Assembly (NCBI GenBank): GCA_038060895.1
Contig: JBBTCT010000022.1
Location: 256,001-320,000, forward strand
Length of the DNA: 64,000 nt
Direction: 5' to 3'
Origin: Planctomycetota bacterium
Lineage (GTDB): Bacteria; Planctomycetota; MHYJ01; WSZJ01
Shown one piece after another: positions 11,997 through 21,102 of the stretch. The notes under the pieces were generated by a model that ran no database searches, was not told where the DNA came from, and saw nothing but the letters and a program-made list of their open reading frames with translations. The number at the start of each line of letters is the position of its first letter. The stretch's first letter is position 1. A program made the translations under genes and the position numbers.

Positions 11997-14108
11997 ATGA
12001 GACTTCATGGAACATTCACGGCGCTCGCGCTCATCGCCTTCGTCGCCGGCTGCGGGGGAAGCGCCGACCATGCCGACCCGGGGGAAACGGACTTGAGCGC
12101 GGACCCGCATCTCTGGCTTGAAGACGTCTACGGCGAGAAAGCGCTCGATTGGGTGCGCGCGCAGAACGCCGTGAGCCAGAAGGAGCTCGAGGCGCTGCCG
12201 GAATTCGAGCCGACGCGGAAGCGGCTTCTGGCGATCTACGATTCGCGGGAGCGGATTCCGCACGTGGGGAAGCGGGGGAAGTGGTTCTACAACTTCTGGC
12301 GCGATGCGAAGAACGTGCGCGGCGTGTGGCGGCGGACGACGCTGGACGAGTACCGCAAGGCGGCGCCGGCGTGGGAGACGGTGATCGACGTCGACCAGCT
12401 CGCGGCCGCGGAGAACGAGAATTGGGTCTGGCAGGGGACGCACTTCCTCGAGCCGGGTTGGGAGCGCTGCATGGTCCAGCTCTCGCGCGGCGGGCTGGAC
12501 GCGAGCGTGTGGCGCGAGTTTGACGTCGTGAAGAAGGAATTCGTGGCTGGCGGGTTCGCGGTGCCGGAGGCGAAGAGCTGGGTCGCGTGGCGCGACATCG
12601 ACACGATCTACGTCGGGACCGATTTCGGCCCGGGGTCAATGACGACATCCGGGTACACGCGCATCGGCAAGGAGTGGAAGCGCGGGACGCCGCTGGCGGA
12701 GGCGCGGACGGTCTTTGAGGGGACGGTGGACGACGTCAACGCGGACATCACGGTCATCCACGATCACGGCCGCACGTACGAGCTGGCGTCGCGCTCGCCG
12801 ACGTTTTTCACGGACGAGATGTTCGTGCGCCGGGGGGACGAGTTCGTGCGCATCGAGAAGCCGGCTGACACCCGACTCCGCTTCTTCGGCGACGCGGCGC
12901 TGTTCGAGCCGCGCACGGACTGGACCGTCGGCGGGAAGACGTGGCCCGCCGGCACGCTCCTTTCGACGGACTTCGACTCCTGGATGAGGGGCGAACGCAA
13001 CCTCGTCCCCGTCTTCGAGCCCACGGCGCGCGCTTCGCTGAGCAGCATCCATTCGACGAAGAGCTGCCTGATCCTGAACATCCTCGAGAATGTCCGCAGC
13101 CGCCCCGTTCTTCTGCACCTTGAAAAGGGAGCCTGGAAACGCACGCCCCTCGAGGTGCCGGAGATCGGCGTCGTGGGCGCGCACGGCGTTGACCCGGACG
13201 AGAACGACGACTACTTCCTGGACGTGACCAGCTTCCTCACGCCGTCCAGCCTGTGGATGGGGACCGTCGGGAAACCGGGGCGCGAAAAGTTGAAGAGTCT
13301 CCCGGAGTATTTCGAGGCCGACGGTCTCGAGATCCAGCAGTTCGAGGTCAAGTCGAAGGACGGCACGCGCGTCCCGTACTTCCAGGTCAGCCGCAAGGGC
13401 CTCGCGCTCGACGGCTCGAATCCCACCCTTCTCTACGGCTACGGCGGCTTCGAAATCTCCATGCTCCCTTCCTACAACTCCGGCCTCGGAGCCTCCTGGC
13501 TCGAGCGCGGCGGCGTCTACGTCCTTTCCAACATCCGCGGCGGCGGCGAGTTCGGCCCCGCGTGGCACAACGCCGTGCGAAAGGAGAACCGGCAGCTCGC
13601 CTACGACGACTTCATCGCGATCGCCGAGGACCTCATCGCGCGCAAGGTCTCATCCCCGCGCCACCTCGGCATCTCAGGCCGCTCGAACGGCGGCCTCCTC
13701 ATGGGCGCCATTCTCACCCAGCGCCCGGAACTCTTCCGCGCCGTCGTCTGCGGGAATCCGCTTCTCGACATGAAGCGTTACCACAAGCTGCTGGCCGGCG
13801 CGAGCTGGATGGACGAGTACGGCGACCCCGACAAGCCGGAGGAGTGGGCGTACATTTCGAAGTTCTCGCCGTACCAGAACCTGCGCAAGGAGCGGACGTA
13901 CCCGCGCGTGCTGTTCACGACGTCGACGAGGGACGACCGCGTCCACCCCGGCCACGCGAGGAAGATGTTCGCGCGCATGCAGGAGCAGGGCCATGACGCC
14001 CTCTACTACGAGAACATCGAGGGAGGGCACGGGTCGGCGGCGAACAACAAGCAGTCGGCCTTCATGGAAGCGCTGGCGTATGCGTTCCTGTGGAAGGAGC
14101 TGAAGTGA
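11997..14108 (+). CDS. Prolyl oligopeptidase (S9A), lipoprotein
   Basis: Lipobox FVAGC; DPHLWLE; GYGGF; NIRGGGEFG; catalytic GRSNGG, DDRVHP, GGH. Confidence 0.93.
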   Translation: MRLHGTFTALALIAFVAGCGGSADHADPGETDLSADPHLWLEDVYGEKALDWVRAQNAVSQKELEALPEFEPTRKRLLAIYDSRERIPHVGKRGKWFYNFWRDAKNVRGVWRRTTLDEYRKAAPAWETVIDVDQLAAAENENWVWQGTHFLEPGWERCMVQLSRGGLDASVWREFDVVKKEFVAGGFAVPEAKSWVAWRDIDTIYVGTDFGPGSMTTSGYTRIGKEWKRGTPLAEARTVFEGTVDDVNADITVIHDHGRTYELASRSPTFFTDEMFVRRGDEFVRIEKPADTRLRFFGDAALFEPRTDWTVGGKTWPAGTLLSTDFDSWMRGERNLVPVFEPTARASLSSIHSTKSCLILNILENVRSRPVLLHLEKGAWKRTPLEVPEIGVVGAHGVDPDENDDYFLDVTSFLTPSSLWMGTVGKPGREKLKSLPEYFEADGLEIQQFEVKSKDGTRVPYFQVSRKGLALDGSNPTLLYGYGGFEISMLPSYNSGLGASWLERGGVYVLSNIRGGGEFGPAWHNAVRKENRQLAYDDFIAIAEDLIARKVSSPRHLGISGRSNGGLLMGAILTQRPELFRAVVCGNPLLDMKRYHKLLAGASWMDEYGDPDKPEEWAYISKFSPYQNLRKERTYPRVLFTTSTRDDRVHPGHARKMFARMQEQGHDALYYENIEGGHGSAANNKQSAFMEALAYAFLWKELK

Positions 14109-14127
14109 ATCGAGGCTGGTTGCAGCA

Positions 14128-14440
14128 GTGAGCACGAAGCCACAATTTCCATGTCCGTGTTGTGGATACGTCGTGTTTTTCGAGCGTCCGGGTAACTACG
14201 AAATTTGCCCGATCTGTTTCTGGGAAGACGACCTCGTTCAACTTCGTGACCCGCGGTTTCCAGGGGGCGCCAACAAATCCAGCCTGGTGGATGCGCAGCA
14301 GAACTGCATTTTGGAAGGTGCCATGGAATCCCGATTCAAGGGGAATGTCCGCAAGCCGCGACCTACCGACGAACAGGATCCGCATTGGCGGCCGGTCAAC
14401 CTCGAGAAGGACAACCTGGAGCAGTGCCTGCCTGAAGGGG
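14128..14440 (+). pseudogene. CPCC-type cysteine-rich protein, C-terminus lost and no stop of its own (end approximate)
   Basis: CPCCG..EICPICFWEDD..GANKSSL motif; the frame runs through non-coding-looking sequence into the next gene. Confidence 0.55.
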
Positions 14441-14541
14441 TCTTCCCTGCCCGAGCTTCCGATTCGCCGGCGCGAGATTTCAGGTGTTCGACTGCCCCCG
14501 CCGCGGCATCATGCCTGCAACCTCTCAGCCGGAGAATTGCC

Positions 14542-15261
14542 ATGCGCGTTTGCCTCGTTCTCGCCTTCGTCGGCATCGCCGCTTCCCTCGCTGCCGCCCA
14601 GGACTCGAAGCCCGACGTCTCCGAAAACGCCTGGCTCGACTACGACGTCGCTTCGCTCAAGAACGGCGAGTGGGTGAAACTGAAACTCGACCGCGACGGG
14701 GAGAAGCCTCTGGAGTACCGGCTGTCGTGCGTGGGGCTGGAAGCGGAGGTGGTCTGGATCGAGGAGGACCGGACGACGGTGGAGTCGTTCCCGGGGACGG
14801 TGATCCTGTGCTCGGTGGGGTTGAAGGACCGGAAGGTGAAGCGCGCGTTCTGGGGGAAGCCGGGTGAGAAGGGCCGGGAGCTGAACCTGACGCGGCGGAT
14901 TTTGCCGGATCCGGGCAACGACGCGGCGAAGGGGACTGCGGAAGTGACCGCGGGCAAGGTGACGATCAAGGGAAAGGAGCACGTCACCGAGAAAATCGAA
15001 ATCAAGGTGGAGATCGAGGGGTTCGGCGCGCCGATCAAGACGAAGCAGGTGATCGTCCTTGCAGCCGAGATCCCATTCCCGCTGGCGATGGACGAGAAGG
15101 GCAACTGCCGCGCGAGCATTTCGGAGGGGAAGATCGAATGGAAGGGGAAGCCGACGTGGAAGGGCGGGGTGGTGACGCTTCAATTTGAGGGCGGAACGAA
15201 GTCGACGCTGTCGCTTGTGGACTGGGGGGCGGACGCGAAGGCGACGTTGTTCAAGCCCTAG
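14542..15261 (+). CDS. Secreted beta-rich hypothetical protein
   Basis: GGAG RBS, signal peptide MRVCLVLAFVGIAASLAAA, host-like codon usage. Confidence 0.75.
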   Translation: MRVCLVLAFVGIAASLAAAQDSKPDVSENAWLDYDVASLKNGEWVKLKLDRDGEKPLEYRLSCVGLEAEVVWIEEDRTTVESFPGTVILCSVGLKDRKVKRAFWGKPGEKGRELNLTRRILPDPGNDAAKGTAEVTAGKVTIKGKEHVTEKIEIKVEIEGFGAPIKTKQVIVLAAEIPFPLAMDEKGNCRASISEGKIEWKGKPTWKGGVVTLQFEGGTKSTLSLVDWGADAKATLFKP

Positions 15262-16085
15262 CGCCCGAGCCTCTCGGAAGCATCCCACTCTTCTTCATTT
15301 TCCAGACCTGTCCTGTAGTCCGGATTCTCGACGAAGTGGCCGAGGTCCTGGTCCCAGAAGAACACCTTCCGGCAGGGGAACTCGGAAACCGGATCCCGGC
15401 GGATGATGCCTTCCTCACCTTCAATTGTGTCACCGTCGTCTTCTCCCTTGTCGACGACGGTTCCCGTGAGATCGAGGTCGTCGTACCCGTCGAGGTCGAT
15501 GTCGCGATAGCAGGGAGACAGCAGGCCCCCCTTGTAGGTGTACCGGTCGTCATGGTCGTCCACGGCGCGCGTCTCGAGGAGCAGCACCAGCTTCCGGCCG
15601 CGCAACTCGTACAGGTACAAGCCTCCGTTGCCCATGTGCGTCTGGCCGAAAACCTCGAACACCGGATTGGGGATTCCGTGCAGCGCCAGGGCCCGCATCT
15701 CCCGGACCGATTGCTCCCCGGGCTGGTTTTCGCACTCCGCCTGCCAGACAATGGCATCCTCCTCAACCCCGTACACCGTCATGAATCCCCACCACTGGCC
15801 TTCGTAGTCGCAAATGGCGCCGAGCAGATCGGGGTGCCCGGCGACCGGGACTGAAGTGATCGCGCGGAGTTCGGCCGACTCGTGTTTCAGGTTCCATGCG
15901 GCGATCGCGGCGTTGAAGCGGCCTGAATCGTCTCCCTCAGGGTCCTCCAGGCGGGGAGAGATTCCGGCCTCATCGGCGGATTTGCGCGACGAGAGCCGCC
16001 GGCATCCGGCGAGCAGAAGAGCGATCGCGACTGAGATCGTAAGGACTCTGATGGGGCACCTCGGGCTGTGAGCGACGCGCGGCAC
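15258..16085 (-). CDS. Hypothetical lipoprotein (start uncertain)
   Basis: LLAGC lipobox; DIDLDGYDDL Ca-binding-like motif. Confidence 0.7.
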   Translation of the reverse strand: MPRVAHSPRCPIRVLTISVAIALLLAGCRRLSSRKSADEAGISPRLEDPEGDDSGRFNAAIAAWNLKHESAELRAITSVPVAGHPDLLGAICDYEGQWWGFMTVYGVEEDAIVWQAECENQPGEQSVREMRALALHGIPNPVFEVFGQTHMGNGGLYLYELRGRKLVLLLETRAVDDHDDRYTYKGGLLSPCYRDIDLDGYDDLDLTGTVVDKGEDDGDTIEGEEGIIRRDPVSEFPCRKVFFWDQDLGHFVENPDYRTGLENEEEWDASERLGR

Positions 16086-16117
16086 TGCTATCGGCGCGCC
16101 GCCGACCCGGGCCGCAC

Positions 16118-16579
16118 TTACTCTTTACCGCCGCAGCACTTCTTGTACTTCTTGCCGCTCCCGCAAGGGCACGGATCGTTGCGGCCGAGAGGCGCGCCCG
16201 CATTCTTGAAAGGCGTTCCCTCGGGTTTCGCCTGCTTTTCGAACGCCGCGGTGAGCGCGCCGGCGTAGGTGGCGAGCTGGCGGCCGCCGTAGAGGCGACC
16301 CTCGGATTCCAGGAATTCGAGGAAGGCGCCGACGAGGTGGGGGACGGAGGCGCGCGCTTCGGGTGGAAGGGCAAGCCGGGCGAGGCCGGTGAGGAGGCCG
16401 TTTCTGACGGAGAGTTCGTCGAGATCGCCGGGAGAAACGGAGGCGCACGCCGTTTCCATGAAGGCCATGAGGAGCGGGGCGGCGTCCAGATCGGGGCGTG
16501 CGCGGAAGGGGCGGAAGGGAGTGGACTCGAGGAAGTCAGCGATCCAGGCTTCGACGCTGTCGCGTTCGAACGTTTCCAT
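16118..16579 (-). CDS. SEC-C motif protein
   Basis: C-terminal [18 protein letters not shown]. Confidence 0.9.
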
Positions 16580-16873
16580 GGGCAAAGCATCGTACGCGCG
16601 GGGCTGCTGTCGCGCGAGTGGCAGGGGGAATAGTCGCCGGAACGCTCAGCCGAGATCGTATAAAATAAGTACTCTGCGCTGCTTAATGATATGCGTGGCT
16701 GGAGTCTGACGCACAGCGAATTTCAACGGGATTATGCACTTGACAAACTTAAAATCCATGAACGAAACTCGTACAGGCATCATGGTTTGCGTCGATTATG
16801 GCCCCGCGATTAAACGAATAAGAAAATCGCCAGAGTCCCGTTTCAGGACGCGATTTTGGCCCGCGACGAGGAT

Positions 16874-17002
16874 TCAGGACTTACGGCGAGGTTTCCCGGC
16901 CTTCTTAGCCCGCTTCAGGGGGGGTGTAGCGAGGGCCTTCCGGATCATGGCGTCGAAGTCCACGCGGGTCACTTCTCGGTGGCTCTCTGGCTTGGGTTTC
17001 AT
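16874..17002 (-). CDS. 42-aa basic peptide inside the IS
   Basis: AAGGAG RBS; MKPKPESHREVTRVDFDAMIRKALATPPLKRAKKAGKPRRKS; too short for the ORF track. Confidence 0.6.
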   Translation of the reverse strand: MKPKPESHREVTRVDFDAMIRKALATPPLKRAKKAGKPRRKS

Positions 17003-17049
17003 CTATCTATCTCCTTGGGGGTTATCAGGCTGATTCCCCTAGAAAGTAT

Positions 17050-17078
17050 TTGACAGCGTCTGCGGCGCAGCTTAGGAT
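17050..17078 (+). promoter_or_regulatory. Sigma70-type promoter for the wHTH-tRNA-tRNA unit
   Basis: TTGACA-17 bp-TAGGAT; ATG lies 7 nt after the -10, implying a leaderless mRNA. Confidence 0.75.
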
Positions 17079-17085
17079 TTCCCAG

Positions 17086-17475
17086 ATGCGAAGGAACAAC
17101 AAGATCGTGAGCCTTGGAGAGGAAATCGCGGCGAAGCGCCGGGAGCTGGCGGCGCTTGAGGCCGAACTTGACATCGAAGTCAGGCGGTATAGCGGTGGTC
17201 ATGCGAAGGCTCCACAAGCGGTGGTGACACCGCCTAGACCTGCGGACCCTGAAGAGGTCCTTCTGAGTGATGCCATCATCGCTGGCAAGGTGGTGCCTCT
17301 CTTGGACAGGGAGCCGGATCGGGTGTTCACCGTGGATGATATCACAAGATTGACCGGAGTGCCGCGCCACCTTCTGGTGATGTCTATCGGGCGCATGGTG
17401 CGCTGGCACAAGGTCCACAAAGTGGAAGCTGGCAAGTACAAGGCATCCACGGTTAAGAAAGCGATGGAGGGATAA
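17086..17475 (+). CDS. Passenger protein: N-terminal coiled coil plus putative C-terminal winged helix
   Basis: EEIAAKRRELAALEAEL coil, Pro-rich linker, then VFTVDDITRLTGVPRHLLVMSIGRMVRWHKVHKVEAGKY (helix-turn-helix plus wing pattern). Confidence 0.65.
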   Translation: MRRNNKIVSLGEEIAAKRRELAALEAELDIEVRRYSGGHAKAPQAVVTPPRPADPEEVLLSDAIIAGKVVPLLDREPDRVFTVDDITRLTGVPRHLLVMSIGRMVRWHKVHKVEAGKYKASTVKKAMEG

Positions 17476-17504
17476 AGAAAAACCCTCGGTCGTTGGCCGA
17501 GGGT
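17474..17504 (-). terminator. Minus-strand intrinsic terminator between the wHTH gene and the tRNAs
   Basis: ACCCTCGGTC-GTT-GGCCGAGGGT hairpin preceded by AAAGAAAAA, so the U-tract exists only on the minus strand. Confidence 0.65.
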
Positions 17505-17515
17505 GTACGTCGGTT

Positions 17516-17607
17516 GGAGAGGTGTCCGAGTGGCTTATGGTGCTGGTTTCCAAAACCAGTGAACGGTGGTGACACACCGTCCGAGGGTTCGACTCCCTCC
17601 CTCTCCG
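17516..17607 (+). tRNA. tRNA with Ser-type body and CCA (Trp) anticodon
   Basis: GGAGAGG/CCTCTCC acceptor, G73, G15:C48, CTGGT-TTCCAAA-ACCAG anticodon arm, long variable arm ACGGTG/CACCGT, GAGGG-TTCGACT-CCCTC T arm; 3' CCA not encoded. Confidence 0.92.
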
Positions 17608-17625
17608 TTTTGCTGTTCTGAGGCT

Positions 17626-17720
17626 GGCCGGGTGGCGGAACTGGTTTACGCGCCCGACTTGGAATCGGGTGGTTGTCTCTTGACGGGGGCACCATGCGGG
17701 TTCGAATCCCGTCCCGGTCA
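17626..17720 (+). tRNA. tRNA with Leu-type body and UGG (Pro) anticodon
   Basis: GGCCGGG/CCCGGTC acceptor, A73, D arm GCG-GAACTGGTTTA-CGC with A15:U48, CCCGA-CTTGGAA-TCGGG anticodon arm, ~26-nt variable arm, GCGGG-TTCGAAT-CCCGT T arm; 3' CCA not encoded. Confidence 0.92.
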
Positions 17721-17780
17721 GTCTCATTTTTGAAAGATCGAAGCGCCTTTGCGAAGTGCTTGAGGCTGGCGCGTGTCAAA

Positions 17781-17809
17781 AGAATACAACAAGACTGGGT
17801 GCGTGTCAA
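17781..17809 (-). promoter_or_regulatory. Sigma70-type promoter antisense to the tRNA pair
   Basis: Minus strand TTGACA (17809-17804), 17 bp, TATTCT (17786-17781), pointing into the tRNA genes. Confidence 0.7.
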
Positions 17810-17841
17810 CTTGCGAAATTGACGCACCGCGCCAACTCTGA

Positions 17842-18795
17842 CTAGCGCTTCACATCCCGCTTTGGCGCTTCCAGAGTGAGGCGTTTTCCTTCGGTGCGCT
17901 GGATCGCGTCGAGCATCTTCGCCCCGTCTGACTTCTTCCGGTTGTTGAACGTCCAGAGGTAGGAATCGAGGTACTTCGGAAGGTAGTCATGCCCAACGCC
18001 GTGGAAGATGCCCACGATGGAAGTCTTGAAGTTGGCGAAGAGGCCCTCAACGCCGTTCGTCGTGACGTCCCCACGGGCGTACTCTTCGATGGAGTGGTTG
18101 ACGGTTTCATGCTTCACCATCATCCGCCCTGGCGTGACGTACAGCTTGGATTCGTCTGAGTGAAGCACCGTCCGCTTGGGATCAACGTTCTTCATTACGA
18201 AGCGGCGGATGTCCCGCGCGTTGGCCTTGGGCGCTGGCTTGACGACGGCACGCGCGGACCCTCCACGCTGAACCAGCGCCAGCACGGTTGACTTCTTCAC
18301 GGCCTTGCCACGGCGCGATCCGCGCCCCTTGTGGCCGAAGTAGGTTTCGTCCGCTTCGATGATCCCGGCGAGTGGTGACTTGTCGGAGTTCTGGAGAGCG
18401 TGGCGCACCCGATGGCAGAGAAACCACGCGGTGCGATAACTGCCGAGTTCAAGGTGCCGCTGGATTGCCAGCGCCGAGATTCCTGTCTTGCTGGACGAAA
18501 TGAGGTAGAAGGCCAGCAGCCACTTGTTGAGCGGGATGTGGCTGTCCTCGAAGATCGTGCCAACGGTGCAAGTGAACTGCTTCCGGCACGCCACGCAGAA
18601 CAGCAGCCCCTTGCGAATCTTCTTCTCCGCGTCTGGCTTGAGCCGGGCGACCTTCTCGCGTTCGGTGCAGCCACAGTGCGGGCAAACGGGGCCAGAGGGC
18701 CAGCGCACCGCTTCGATGTAGTTACGCGCGGCGTCCTCGTCTGGGAAGAGAGAGAAGATGTTCGTCAGGCTCACGGCATCGGGCGTCGGGATCAT
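17842..18795 (-). CDS. IS1595-family (ISXO2-like) DDE transposase
   Basis: Zn ribbon CPHCG..CVAC, GTIFEDSHIPL, IEADETYFG, LHSDE, VNHS, TNGVEG..FK, YLDSY. Confidence 0.95.
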   Translation of the reverse strand: MIPTPDAVSLTNIFSLFPDEDAARNYIEAVRWPSGPVCPHCGCTEREKVARLKPDAEKKIRKGLLFCVACRKQFTCTVGTIFEDSHIPLNKWLLAFYLISSSKTGISALAIQRHLELGSYRTAWFLCHRVRHALQNSDKSPLAGIIEADETYFGHKGRGSRRGKAVKKSTVLALVQRGGSARAVVKPAPKANARDIRRFVMKNVDPKRTVLHSDESKLYVTPGRMMVKHETVNHSIEEYARGDVTTNGVEGLFANFKTSIVGIFHGVGHDYLPKYLDSYLWTFNNRKKSDGAKMLDAIQRTEGKRLTLEAPKRDVKR

Positions 18796-18820
18796 GGGCG
18801 TCTCCTTTGAGTACGCCTAA

Positions 18821-18849
18821 AAGATACTAGATCATGCTTGTTTTGTCAA
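18821..18849 (-). promoter_or_regulatory. Transposase promoter with -35 inside the TIR
   Basis: Minus strand TTGACA-17 bp-TATCTT, then AAGGAG RBS and ATG at 18795. Confidence 0.75.
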
Positions 18850-18923
18850 GTGCATAATCCCGATTTCAAGCTTAACATTATGATATTAAATAAGTTATGA
18901 CACATTGTCTGCAACGGTTCATT

Positions 18924-18939
18924 CGGCACGTGCGTTGCA
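18924..18939 (+). promoter_or_regulatory. Putative sigma54 -24/-12 promoter
   Basis: CGGCACGTGCGTTGCA (GG-N10-GC) preceded by an AT-rich IHF-like tract, upstream of the ORF at 19022. Confidence 0.55.
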
Positions 18940-19021
18940 ATTCAATCTTGACGCGACCTGATCAACGAACGGTTGCGGCCTTCACTTCCCAAACAACAAC
19001 TCACCGATCGGAGAACGACCC

Positions 19022-19561
19022 ATGAGCAACACATTGGACACAACCATCCGGGTTCAGTGGTCCCCGGCCCCCGGCTCCCCCGAAGCCCTTTCTTCCAACC
19101 GCCGTCTCTCGAAGCTCGCCGCTGCGGCGCTTCACTGCGCCTGGCTGTCCTACATCGCGGCGCTCTTCCTTCCTGCCGCTGTCTACACACCCGGCTACCT
19201 GTGCCTGCTCGGGTCGGCCGTTTCGGTGGTGGTTCTCTGCCTGGGCTCGGTCTCCGCGCTCGTTCCCGCGCTTCTGTTCATCCCGAACCTGGCGATGCTC
19301 CTGAGCCCGATGGTCCTGGCGCGGTCCGTGCGTCGCGGCCGCATGATGCAGGTCCTGAGCGGGCTCAGCGTGGCCGGCGCCATCCTGACCGTTTCGTGCG
19401 GCGCGCTGATCTGCTCCCAGGGGCTCGACACCGGCGGCTGCGGCGGCACGGGCGGACGGAACTCCGATCCGGAGATCGGGTTCTTCATGTGGGTCGTGTC
19501 GGCGGTCTTCCTCGCGGCCGGCACGGTCCTCGCCCGCCGGTCGGAAGGCGCCGCGAAGTAA
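19022..19561 (+). CDS. Hypothetical multi-pass membrane protein
   Basis: GGAG RBS; 4-5 hydrophobic segments. Confidence 0.7.
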   Translation: MSNTLDTTIRVQWSPAPGSPEALSSNRRLSKLAAAALHCAWLSYIAALFLPAAVYTPGYLCLLGSAVSVVVLCLGSVSALVPALLFIPNLAMLLSPMVLARSVRRGRMMQVLSGLSVAGAILTVSCGALICSQGLDTGGCGGTGGRNSDPEIGFFMWVVSAVFLAAGTVLARRSEGAAK

Positions 19562-19653
19562 GTCCGGTCTCCTCTCTGCCGAACGGGCCGCGCGATCCCC
19601 ACGGATCCGCGGCCCGTCGCGTTTCCGGCATTCTTCGGGGACAATGCCCCGGA

Positions 19654-20013
19654 ATGGACCAGCTGAACACCGTGCGCGTTCACCTCCTCGAACTTCATCG
19701 CCTCCTCCTCGCCGTCGAGCGCGAGGACTACGAACGCGTCCACGGCCGCGTGACGGGCGCCACCTTCCTGAACGTGCTGACCTCCGACCCGGCGTTCGCA
19801 TGGCTGCGGCCCCTCACGTCGCTGATCCTCACGCTGGACGAGATGCTGGAAGCGGAACTCACCGAGGCCGACCGGGTGGACGGCATCACGCGCATCCGCG
19901 CTTTCCTGGCCCCCGACGAAAACGGGAACGAGTTCCAGAGGAGGTACGCCGACGCGCTTCAGCAGAGCCCGCACGTTCTACTCGCGCACGGGGTGGTGAT
20001 GAAGGCGCTGTAG
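19654..20013 (+). CDS. Hypothetical helical protein
   Basis: MDQLNTVRVHLLELHRLLL..YERVHG..DPAFAWLRPL; strong codon bias; C-terminal part of track ORF 18973..20013. Confidence 0.75.
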   Translation: MDQLNTVRVHLLELHRLLLAVEREDYERVHGRVTGATFLNVLTSDPAFAWLRPLTSLILTLDEMLEAELTEADRVDGITRIRAFLAPDENGNEFQRRYADALQQSPHVLLAHGVVMKAL

Positions 20014-20044
20014 ACCGCCGCCGGGCGCTCCCCCGGCTCACTGT

Positions 20045-20072
20045 AATAGACAATAAAACCATTATGTCTATT
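20045..20072. promoter_or_regulatory. Palindromic operator/promoter of the TA operon
   Basis: AATAGACA-N12-TGTCTATT inverted repeat overlapping TAGACA/TATTCT promoter-like hexamers. Confidence 0.6.
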
Positions 20073-20111
20073 CTGGGCATTATGGTAATTTCCGTCCAGG
20101 AGGTTTCACCC

Positions 20112-20462
20112 ATGACGACAAGTTCCCTGCCGACGCCGACGGGCGAATCCGTTCCCATGACCAGCTTCCCGGCCTCTGCGCTCAAGAACTCCGCTGCGGA
20201 TGTCCTGGAGATGGTCCTGACCTCCGGCGCCGTTGTCATCACCCGACACGGCAAGGAGAAGGCCGTGATCCTGTCCGTCGAAGCCTACCGGCGACTCGTG
20301 GCTTCCCGCCGCGACGACCTGGACGTTCTACGCGCAAAATTCGGCGGGCTGCTAGCCAGAATGCAGACTCCCGCTGCGCGAAAGGGCGCACGGGCCGCCT
20401 TCGACGCTTCGCCGGATGAAATGGGCAAAGCAGCCGTAAAGGCGGCGCGCCGCCGTGGCTGA
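20112..20462 (+). CDS. Phd/YefM-family antitoxin
   Basis: ASALKNSAADVLE..AVVITRHGKEKAVILSVEAY. Confidence 0.85.
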   Translation: MTTSSLPTPTGESVPMTSFPASALKNSAADVLEMVLTSGAVVITRHGKEKAVILSVEAYRRLVASRRDDLDVLRAKFGGLLARMQTPAARKGARAAFDASPDEMGKAAVKAARRRG

Positions 20463-21102
20463 CCGCCGCGCCGTCATCACCGTGCTCGCCGGCACGAATG
20501 GCGCCGGCAAGAGCAGCATTGCAGGAGCCACGATTCGTTCGCGCCAGGCGGACTACTACAACCCTGACGAAGCGGCGCGCGCTCACAAGGAAGCGCATCC
20601 GGAGGCGACTGCCGAAGAAGCGAACGCCGCTGCGTGGGAATTCGGCCGCCGCATGCTCGAAGAGGCCGCTCGTGAGCGGAAGAACTTCGCCTTTGAAACG
20701 ACACTGGGCGGCAACACGATCATGTTTCTTCTTGAGAATGCAGCGAATTCCGGTTTGGACGTGCGGATCTGGTACACCGGACTTGCTTCAGTCGAGTTGC
20801 ACCTCAAACGCGTCCGGCAACGGGTCCGCCTGGGAGGTCACGACATTCCCGAGGAAATGATCCGGCGCCGCTATGAGAACGGGCCCCGGAACCTGATCCG
20901 CCTCATGCCGAAGCTCGCCTCGCTGCGCGTCTACGACAACAGTGCCGCAGGGGATCCCGCCGCGGGAGTGGCTCCGAAACCAGTTCTTGTTCTGCAGATG
21001 GAAAAGGGCCGAATTGCCGGGCCGAAGGATCTGTCCCGGACTTCCGAATGGGCGAAATCGATCGTCGCGCGGGCCATGGAACTTCACTCGGCGCCCAGGT
21101 AG
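20455..21102 (+). CDS. Zeta-toxin-like P-loop protein
   Basis: [39 protein letters not shown]; overlaps the antitoxin gene. Confidence 0.85.

Follow-up and report, generated by a model that had tools for sequence, protein, structure and literature searches.

Antisense control is well known for transposase and toxin messenger RNAs (mRNAs), though not for transfer RNA (tRNA) genes. In the insertion sequence IS10, RNA-OUT is antisense to the 5' end of the transposase gene and its ribosome-binding site (RNA-IN), and members of the IS1595 family, following the ISfinder description, combine a zinc-ribbon DDE transposase, short inverted repeats, a target duplication and room for passenger genes. Here we describe an IS1595-family transposon of 2,136 bp from a Planctomycetota bacterium (assembly GCA_038060895.1), located at positions 16727-18862 of a 64-kb stretch of contig JBBTCT010000022.1 (the whole stretch analysed, hereafter the window; positions are those of the window unless a contig or locus is named). 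The transposon carries two plus-strand tRNA genes with mismatched anticodons, and a promoter-like and a terminator-like signal on the minus strand enclose both. A first-pass annotation had predicted an antisense RNA from these two signals and had missed the transposon that holds them.

The closest analogy appears to be with type VIII toxin-antitoxin systems and not with type I. In type VIII (SdsR/RyeA type), as outlined in PMC8610362, an RNA toxin is opposed by an antisense RNA made from the opposite strand of the same locus. The likeness is that the target would be an RNA and not a protein-coding mRNA, and that full complementarity and encoding in cis would also mark the proposed antidote. 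The differences are that the candidate toxin here would be one or two tRNAs acting via mistranslation and that the module sits in an insertion sequence. Promoter-like and terminator-like signals for the predicted antisense RNA are in place on the opposite strand and recur elsewhere. Type I systems (hok/sok type), whose logic had been invoked initially, resemble the proposed arrangement in that a strong promoter drives a constitutive antisense RNA against a harmful gene, frequently on mobile DNA. Type I, however, requires a small toxic protein whose translation is blocked, and it is in type VIII that an antisense RNA acts against an RNA target (PMC8610362). Because no credible toxin open reading frame (ORF) lies under the predicted antisense RNA, the type I label is wrong. 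If true, the arrangement would show how a mobile element carrying genetic-code-breaking tRNAs can be tolerated, and the 2.1-kb element offers a defined unit for asking what natural anticodon-mismatched tRNAs do.

With IS10 the locus shares an insertion sequence with a strong internal outward or antisense promoter and a short RNA that would pair with the element's other transcript; the RNA here, however, covers cargo tRNAs on the 3' side of the transposase gene. Since the predicted RNA (17774-17474) does not overlap the start of the transposase gene (18795-17842), control of the IS10 type is excluded. Acidobacteria provide a further comparison in their allo-tRNAs and irregular tRNA polycistrons (Mukai et al., PMC5389517): these are class II tRNAs of the Ser type that have non-Ser anticodons and are reported near toxin-antitoxin genes and a transposon-related ORF. 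The first of the two tRNAs here is likewise a class II Ser-type tRNA with a non-Ser anticodon, but the defining feature of allo-tRNAs is an acceptor/T stem split of 8/4 or 9/3, as against 7/5 in both tRNAs here. The main text of that paper does not contain the word antisense, and we found in it neither an IS1595 link nor a Leu-like tRNA with anticodon UGG, although its supplements may list such tRNAs. While the element matches the layout of the IS1595 family, we found no report of tRNA passengers in that family, nor one describing antisense RNAs opposite bacterial tRNA genes, with the same proviso for the supplements of PMC5389517. Independently of any antisense RNA, UGG-anticodon tRNAs are cargo of IS1595-family elements in at least eight named lineages, a link for which we likewise found no report.

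Antisense signals around two cargo tRNAs

The window contains only two tRNA genes, both on the plus strand (ARAGORN: 17515-17608, anticodon CCA, and 17625-17721, anticodon UGG), and the antisense signals lie on either side of them:

17516-17607, plus strand: tRNA1, class II, Ser-like body, G73, Trp anticodon CCA (Rfam tRNA, 48.8 bits; ARAGORN)
17626-17720, plus strand: tRNA2, class II, Leu-like body, A73, Pro anticodon UGG, A37 (Rfam tRNA, 55.5 bits; ARAGORN)
17781-17809, minus strand: antisense promoter-like site TTGACA-17-TATTCT (10/12 consensus match)
17474-17504, minus strand only: terminator-like hairpin with U-tract (hairpin 17504-17482, 8 pairs of which 6 are G-C, 7-nt loop)
17474-17774, minus strand: predicted antisense RNA, ~300 nt (start placed ~7 nt after the -10, end in the U-tract)
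17799-17829, no strand assigned: palindrome GGTGCGTGTCAA-N9-TTGACGCACC (a hairpin in minus-strand RNA directly after the transposase stop)

Both signals named by the first-pass annotation were recovered in a scan of positions 14000-21000 that works by consensus matching only and scores promoters out of 12 positions: the promoter-like site just beyond tRNA2 (17809-17781) reaches 10/12, and the hairpin just upstream of tRNA1 (17504-17482) is followed by a U-tract that extends to 17474. Five promoter-like sites occur in the scanned region, compared with a mean of 0.7 in shuffles. Throughout the 5.4-Mb genome (65% G+C), sites scoring >=10/12 number 134, i.e., 0.012 per kb of strand (473 at >=9/12), and three of them fall within the 2.1-kb element where ~0.05 would be expected. 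Such a site is found <=200 nt upstream of 13 of 45 host tRNA genes, with the -10 mostly ending 9-14 nt before the tRNA, and the hexamers match those of the element, e.g., TTGACA-17-TAGGAT before a host tRNA-Val, and TTGACC-17-TATTCT. The hairpin (-14.2 kcal/mol on the minus strand) has the make-up of an intrinsic terminator, a G+C-rich stem-loop followed by the U-tract UUUUUCUUUAU, on the minus strand only, where the complete tail reads TTTTCTTTAT. On the plus strand the sequence 3' of the hairpin reads GTACGTCGG / GUACGUCGG and has no U-tract; thus, as had been argued before, plus-strand transcription of the upstream gene is expected to continue into the tRNAs.

The predicted RNA folds at -104 kcal/mol (z -2.3). 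It had been described as an RNA of ~300 nt "exactly covering" both tRNA genes, of which the predicted size and placement are fair but "exactly" is loose, the overhangs being ~54 nt past tRNA2 and ~40 nt past tRNA1. The absence of a credible ORF with a ribosome-binding site between the two signals was borne out for both strands of 17474-17774, tRNA-overlapping frames aside. Two minus-strand frames were dismissed, namely a 242-aa ORF (ATG at 17727) that lacks a purine-rich ribosome-binding site and extends across the terminator and on, antisense to the neighbouring gene, and a 22-aa TTG ORF that starts upstream of the predicted RNA start.

Both tRNAs align over their full length to the Rfam tRNA model RF00005 (model positions 1-71, cut-off 29 bits), with long variable arms and ordinary 7/5 acceptor/T stems. 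ARAGORN adds one flanking base on each side, which in tRNA2 could form an eighth acceptor pair atop the 5-bp T stem; an allo-tRNA identity (8/4 or 9/3) was considered for both tRNAs and ruled out by the alignment with a 7-bp acceptor and a 5-bp T stem. The acceptor stem, T arm and G73 of tRNA1 are those of the host tRNA-Ser(GGA) (contig C10:56411-56501) and, because its last 29 nt (17579-17607) are identical to that gene, tRNA1 is probably derived from a tRNA-Ser of the host lineage. Its D-stem is weakened by two non-standard pairs. tRNA2 combines the D arm and A73 of the tRNA-Leu type with A37, as against G37 in the real tRNA-Pro of the host. Both carry the anticodon and discriminator base that we take to be used by the tryptophanyl- and prolyl-tRNA synthetases (TrpRS and ProRS).

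Three further observations touch these tRNAs. The predicted antisense RNA is also perfectly complementary to the matching 29-nt part of the host tRNA-Ser(GGA). The anticodon loops of tRNA1 (UUCCAAA, 17547-17553) and tRNA2 (CUUGGAA, 17658-17664) are complementary at 6/7 positions and could engage in loop-loop pairing, and UGG is complementary to the CCA-3' end of all tRNAs.

Both strands of positions 16700-18900 were inspected. The signals and both tRNAs belong to a single transposon, the remaining parts of which are as follows:

16720-16726, no strand assigned: target-site duplication, left copy ATTTCAA, 7 bp (same 7 bases 3' of the right inverted repeat)
16727-16747, plus strand: left terminal inverted repeat CGGGATTATGCACTTGACAAA, 21 nt, 100% complementary to 18842-18862
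18842-18862, minus strand: right terminal inverted repeat, pairing with the left repeat over 21 nt without mismatch
18863-18869, no strand assigned: target-site duplication, right copy ATTTCAA (empty-site joint 16719->18863 in run X3)
17842-18795, minus strand: IS1595-family transposase, 317 aa (Pfam DDE_Tnp_IS1595, PF12762, 2.3e-29; Zn_ribbon_IS1595, PF12760, 5e-12)
18821-18849, minus strand: transposase promoter-like site TTGACA-17-TATCTT (consensus scan; -35 within the right inverted repeat)
17050-17078, plus strand: sense promoter-like site TTGACA-17-TAGGAT (10/12), expected to serve ORF129 and, through continued transcription, the tRNAs
17086-17475, plus strand: ORF129, orphan protein, 129 aa (no Pfam family)
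16874-17002, minus strand: ORF42, small basic protein, 42 aa (good ribosome-binding site AAGGAG; no Pfam family)

A zinc-ribbon DDE transposase, bounding inverted repeats with a target duplication and an empty site place the element in the IS1595 family. The empty site comes from a contig of DNA run X3 (metagenome of another study) that joins 16719 to 18863 and omits 2143 nt, the seven shared letters at the joint being assignable to either side; it is a single contig at a depth of 5.4. Thus, the 2,136 bp form a single mobile unit that carries the tRNAs as cargo. Contigs of runs X3 and X5 are identical copies, and the element is single-copy at the DNA level in its own genome. The same genome harbors a second IS1595-family element (contig C9:99057-100661; locus L002:405-2009) with a transposase 48% identical to the first. 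Close relatives of the cargo were not recovered: 60 related genomes gave ordinary tRNA-Ser matches only, a pattern for the Ser-like tRNA with anticodon CCA matched no stretch in the genome-contig collection, and a pattern for the tandem tRNA pair matched one stretch in a metagenome scan (L099), unrelated to the element, so that no second copy of the pair was found.

Recurrence in other IS1595 elements

More distant relatives are widespread. A 20-mer of the inverted repeat is present in 45 stretches from many phyla in the genome-contig collection, most of them adjoining a transposase gene 35-55% identical at the protein level. A pattern consisting of a Leu-type D arm and the loop CTTGGAA matched 32 stretches, which comprise 19 real class II tRNAs, three tRNA-Leu(UAA) genes with an intron and ten chance matches. 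The 19 class II tRNAs (loci L034, L068-L074, L076-L078, L080, L084-L089 and L097) have anticodon UGG and A37; Rfam gives 18 tRNAs at 45-58 bits for this set, L086 and L097 are not in its output and were judged by eye, and one genome contributes two copies to the 19. An IS1595 transposase homologue lies within the 8-kb locus in 15/19 of these, compared with 0/13 of the other pattern matches, and in five loci pairs of inverted repeats surround both the tRNA and the transposase gene. Five further IS1595 loci (L002, L023, L032, L041 and L066) contain an irregular class I tRNA(UGG) (Rfam 55-60 bits); the feature common to all these tRNAs is the anticodon UGG and not the tRNA body. One of the five loci is the second element of the same genome (L002), in which a 73-nt class I tRNA (UGG, A37) is convergent with the transposase gene and closely preceded by an antisense terminator-like hairpin of 12 bp.

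The recurrence of the antisense bracket was assessed in 19 class II tRNA(UGG) loci, i.e., with the window included and the second copy in one genome (L071) dropped, which leaves 18 loci besides the window, 14 of them beside an IS1595 transposase. The script applied the scan's own rules and reproduces its calls for the window, L087 and L078. An antisense promoter-like site is present <=150 nt downstream of the tRNA in 7/19 loci, compared with two on the other strand and 0.9 expected from whole loci. An antisense terminator-like hairpin (loops <=22 nt) is found <=80 nt upstream of the tRNA in 8/19, compared with one on the other strand and 0.5 expected from random windows (31/1140). Leaving the window aside, the terminator recurs in 7/18 loci and the promoter-like site in 6/18. 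Both signals together are found in L034 (Verrucomicrobiae), L077 (Nevskiaceae), L078 (Gemmatimonadaceae), L087 (Acidobacteriaceae) and the window, and the bracket of L087, like that of the window, surrounds two tRNAs. The L087 transposase gene points away and therefore cannot be the source of an antisense transcript. A sense promoter upstream of the tRNA was detected in only three of the 19 loci. Among the class I loci, the antisense terminator is seen in 3/5 (including L002 of the same genome). As a control, 41 host tRNA genes show no antisense promoter-like site and a single antisense terminator, which is that of the cargo tRNA on contig C9; the 40 ordinary host tRNA genes have neither signal.

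As to the conservation of promoter and terminator, which had been suggested as a check on the prediction, the bracket recurs in distantly related elements of other phyla, many loci lack one or both signals, and close homologues of the cargo were not found. Of the interpretation as a whole, two real and rare signals, their antisense arrangement over both tRNAs and its recurrence have stood, whereas the type I label has not.

The setting of the tRNAs is also shared among elements. In 15/20 elements the tRNA is oriented towards the transposase gene's 3' end, and in L068 it lies antisense in an 85-nt gap of a gene row comprising the transposase, an NYN-domain protein and a small protein; from this orientation and layout, it would seem usual for the cargo tRNA to be crossed by antisense transcription.

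Two side observations concern the neighbours of these tRNAs. An NYN-domain gene (predicted RNase) adjoins the Leu-like tRNA(UGG) in L068, L069, L084, L085, L089 and L077 (Pfam NYN 1.7e-25 in L084 and 5.7e-12 in L077; the other four were assigned by BLASTP only). In L087 the partner tRNA has anticodon CGA and its loop, unlike that of the window pair, is not complementary to the loop of the UGG-tRNA.

A possible dedicated antisense unit and its alternatives

We tentatively favour, as something close to an even call, a dedicated antisense unit that, reinforced by read-through from the transposase gene, lowers the cargo tRNAs in cis and ends at a terminator shielding ORF129. The promoter at 17050 would drive ORF129 on the plus strand, and transcription would continue through the hairpin into the two anticodon-mismatched class II tRNAs. 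From the promoter just beyond tRNA2 (17809-17781), a minus-strand RNA of ~300 nt complementary to both tRNAs would start, to end at the minus-only terminator just beyond tRNA1 (17504-17474), while transcription continuing past the end of the convergent transposase gene would contribute further antisense RNA. The effect would most likely be exerted in cis, with mature cargo tRNA kept low both by polymerase convergence and by the antisense RNA annealing to the ORF129-tRNA precursor ahead of folding and processing; the terminator would keep antisense transcription off ORF129. Judged by its signals, such an antisense unit is plausible and recurrent. We infer that the antisense RNA is made, that the tRNAs are lowered by it and that they are harmful when unchecked, and the antidote role, drawn by analogy, presupposes their toxicity. 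Missense-suppressor allo-tRNAs, when induced, stopped growth and killed E. coli (PMC5389517), and thus, by analogy, a need to hold such tRNAs down appears plausible.

Several observations weigh against this reading. Mature tRNAs are tightly folded and poor pairing targets. Both cargo tRNAs might be harmless if they are charged by their cognate TrpRS and ProRS, as the identity rules we assume would have it, and the weak D-stem may leave tRNA1 non-functional. The promoter-like site is missing in 12/19 class II loci and in all five class I loci (0/5), the antisense terminator in 11/19 class II and 2/5 class I loci, and five Terriglobia loci with NYN genes have neither signal; these counts come from consensus-only scans applied across phyla whose promoters differ. 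The promoter-like sites of L077 and L078 each overlap the beginning of a plus-strand gene, where A+T-rich sequence could yield a match by chance. Eleven sequencing runs hold part of the element, one of them RNA (X7, a metatranscriptome), whose contigs match 17880-18051 and 18351-18503 only, both within the transposase gene, and are uninformative on 17474-17809. A further point, missed earlier, concerns the promoter itself: the minus strand after the transposase stop (17845-17755) forms a strong hairpin (-30.5 kcal/mol, z -3.0), the antisense -35 TTGACA is the 3' arm of this hairpin and the -10 TATTCT lies in its U-rich tail, so that the antisense "promoter" may be a terminator by-product. The site could also be a terminator and a promoter in one place.

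This last point leads to the main alternative, a simpler one of mere insulation, which we consider somewhat unlikely. The hairpin at 17504-17474 would then end transposase-strand transcription and protect ORF129 and its promoter, the promoter match directly after the transposase stop would be a side effect of the post-transposase terminator, and the antisense cover of the tRNAs would be incidental and non-regulatory. It would be in keeping with this that the tRNA and transposase genes are convergent in 9/14 independent class II loci with a transposase gene, where a terminator past the tRNA would therefore end the transposase mRNA, that a terminator-like site between the two genes is seen in only 1/9 of the convergent loci (L077), and that so many loci (the 12/19 mentioned above) have no promoter-like site downstream of the tRNA. 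However, an insulator placed between the two genes would be equally useful, whereas it lies beyond the tRNA in 8/19 loci; promoter-like sites >=10/12 are very rare in the genome; and both L087, with its transposase gene pointing away, and L078, where that gene is on the far side of the tRNA, have the bracket although neither transposase gene can supply the antisense transcript. That nothing is made, both signals being silent matches in a decaying cargo module, is in our view unlikely: the contigs of the sole RNA run fall on the transposase gene only, ORF129 is an orphan for which the searches found no relative, the D-stem of tRNA1 has its two non-standard pairs and a second copy of the tRNA pair was not found in the 60 related genomes, the genome contigs or the metagenome scan, but, with perfectly matched inverted repeats, an uninterrupted transposase gene and an insertion that is polymorphic (it has an empty site), the element is intact; moreover, its 2.1 kb contain three near-consensus promoters of the same style, and the bracket recurs in other phyla.

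A real promoter with another purpose, either firing against plus-strand transcripts of the tRNA operon that would otherwise extend antisense into the transposase gene or feeding ORF42 by partial read-through of the terminator, appears very unlikely. The scan found no plus-strand terminator-like site after tRNA2, where there is only a short T-run at 17727-17731, and none of its promoter-like sites belongs to ORF42 itself; in L087 the small homologue is encoded after the transposase gene and in the same direction. Against this, a strong terminator hairpin and ~470 nt antisense to ORF129 precede ORF42. Extending the favoured antisense unit across the family, we postulate, as a quite unlikely generalization, that IS1595 transposons of many phyla carry a tRNA-based addiction or control module of a type VIII-like kind. 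A tRNA with UGG and A37 on a foreign body would be the RNA toxin, acting by mistranslation of Pro codons or frameshifting or by pairing with CCA ends, and would be checked by a constitutive cis-antisense RNA with its own promoter and terminator, while the CCA tRNA of the window, with its loop complementary at 6/7 positions, would be a second neutraliser.

Other features of the element and the genome

The palindrome at 17799-17829 is possibly the transposase terminator and/or an operator. It has a counterpart in L087, GCGTCAA-N11-TTGACGC, between the tRNA and the transposase gene, which holds the -35 hexamers of two divergent promoter-like sites. As a palindrome or repeat, GCGTCAA / TTGACGC is seen between cargo tRNA and transposase gene in the window (17799-17829 and 17768-17779), in L087 (1198-1226) and in L002 (~500-520), and in these unrelated elements the motif may serve as an operator or be bound by the transposase.

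ORF129 has no relative in the genome-contig collection and stands alone among 5.8 billion proteins (70-226 aa range); BLASTP gave no alignment between it and the ORF at the same position in L087. Its C-terminal ~75 aa may form a winged helix, a lead only, the protein-atlas leads being clusters of the MarR/IclR/AbiEi-type helix-turn-helix (0.85-0.91, TM below 0.5). ORF42 has in common with small ORFs of eight other IS1595-tRNA loci the loose motif h-x-I-x-x-D-F/W-x-x-A-V-x-x-x-L and a Lys-rich tail; these small basic ORFs of 40-100 aa (L068, L070, L071/73, L072, L074, L078, L087 and L097) often adjoin an inverted repeat and match no Pfam family.

Codon usage provides a weak hint that the UGG tRNA serves the element's own translation. 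CCA accounts for 6/15 Pro codons in the transposase gene of the window and 6/16 in that of L002, compared with ~12% in long host ORFs. Across loci, the transposase genes show a weak trend in the same direction, with CCA at 50/184 Pro codons where there is tRNA cargo and 34/174 where there is none; we build no conclusion on this.

Several tRNA-like candidates were set aside. Six other long ARAGORN "tRNAs" in the genome (on C5, C32, C33 and C46, and at C22:398993 and C1:472898) are false and have no T-loop, and the below-threshold Rfam hits over the cargo tRNAs (sX4, Plastid-psbl-rps4 and COG2908) are far under their cut-offs and are echoes of tRNA structure. Just upstream of the Leu-like tRNA of L080, positions 870-960 resemble the 3' half (T arm and acceptor) of a class II tRNA, uncalled by ARAGORN and Rfam. 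On the unrelated metagenome contig L099 (1-1097), a 170-aa ORF is surrounded by a series of tRNA-Leu genes and tRNA-like fragments. The host genome itself has, outside the window, a dense one-strand array of ~35 tRNA genes (C22:195134-199316), one of them with a four-base anticodon according to ARAGORN. Finally, 1.5 kb to the left of the transposon, a 377-aa ORF on the plus strand (14128-15261) has an N-terminal Cys_rich_CPCC domain (Pfam 1e-27).

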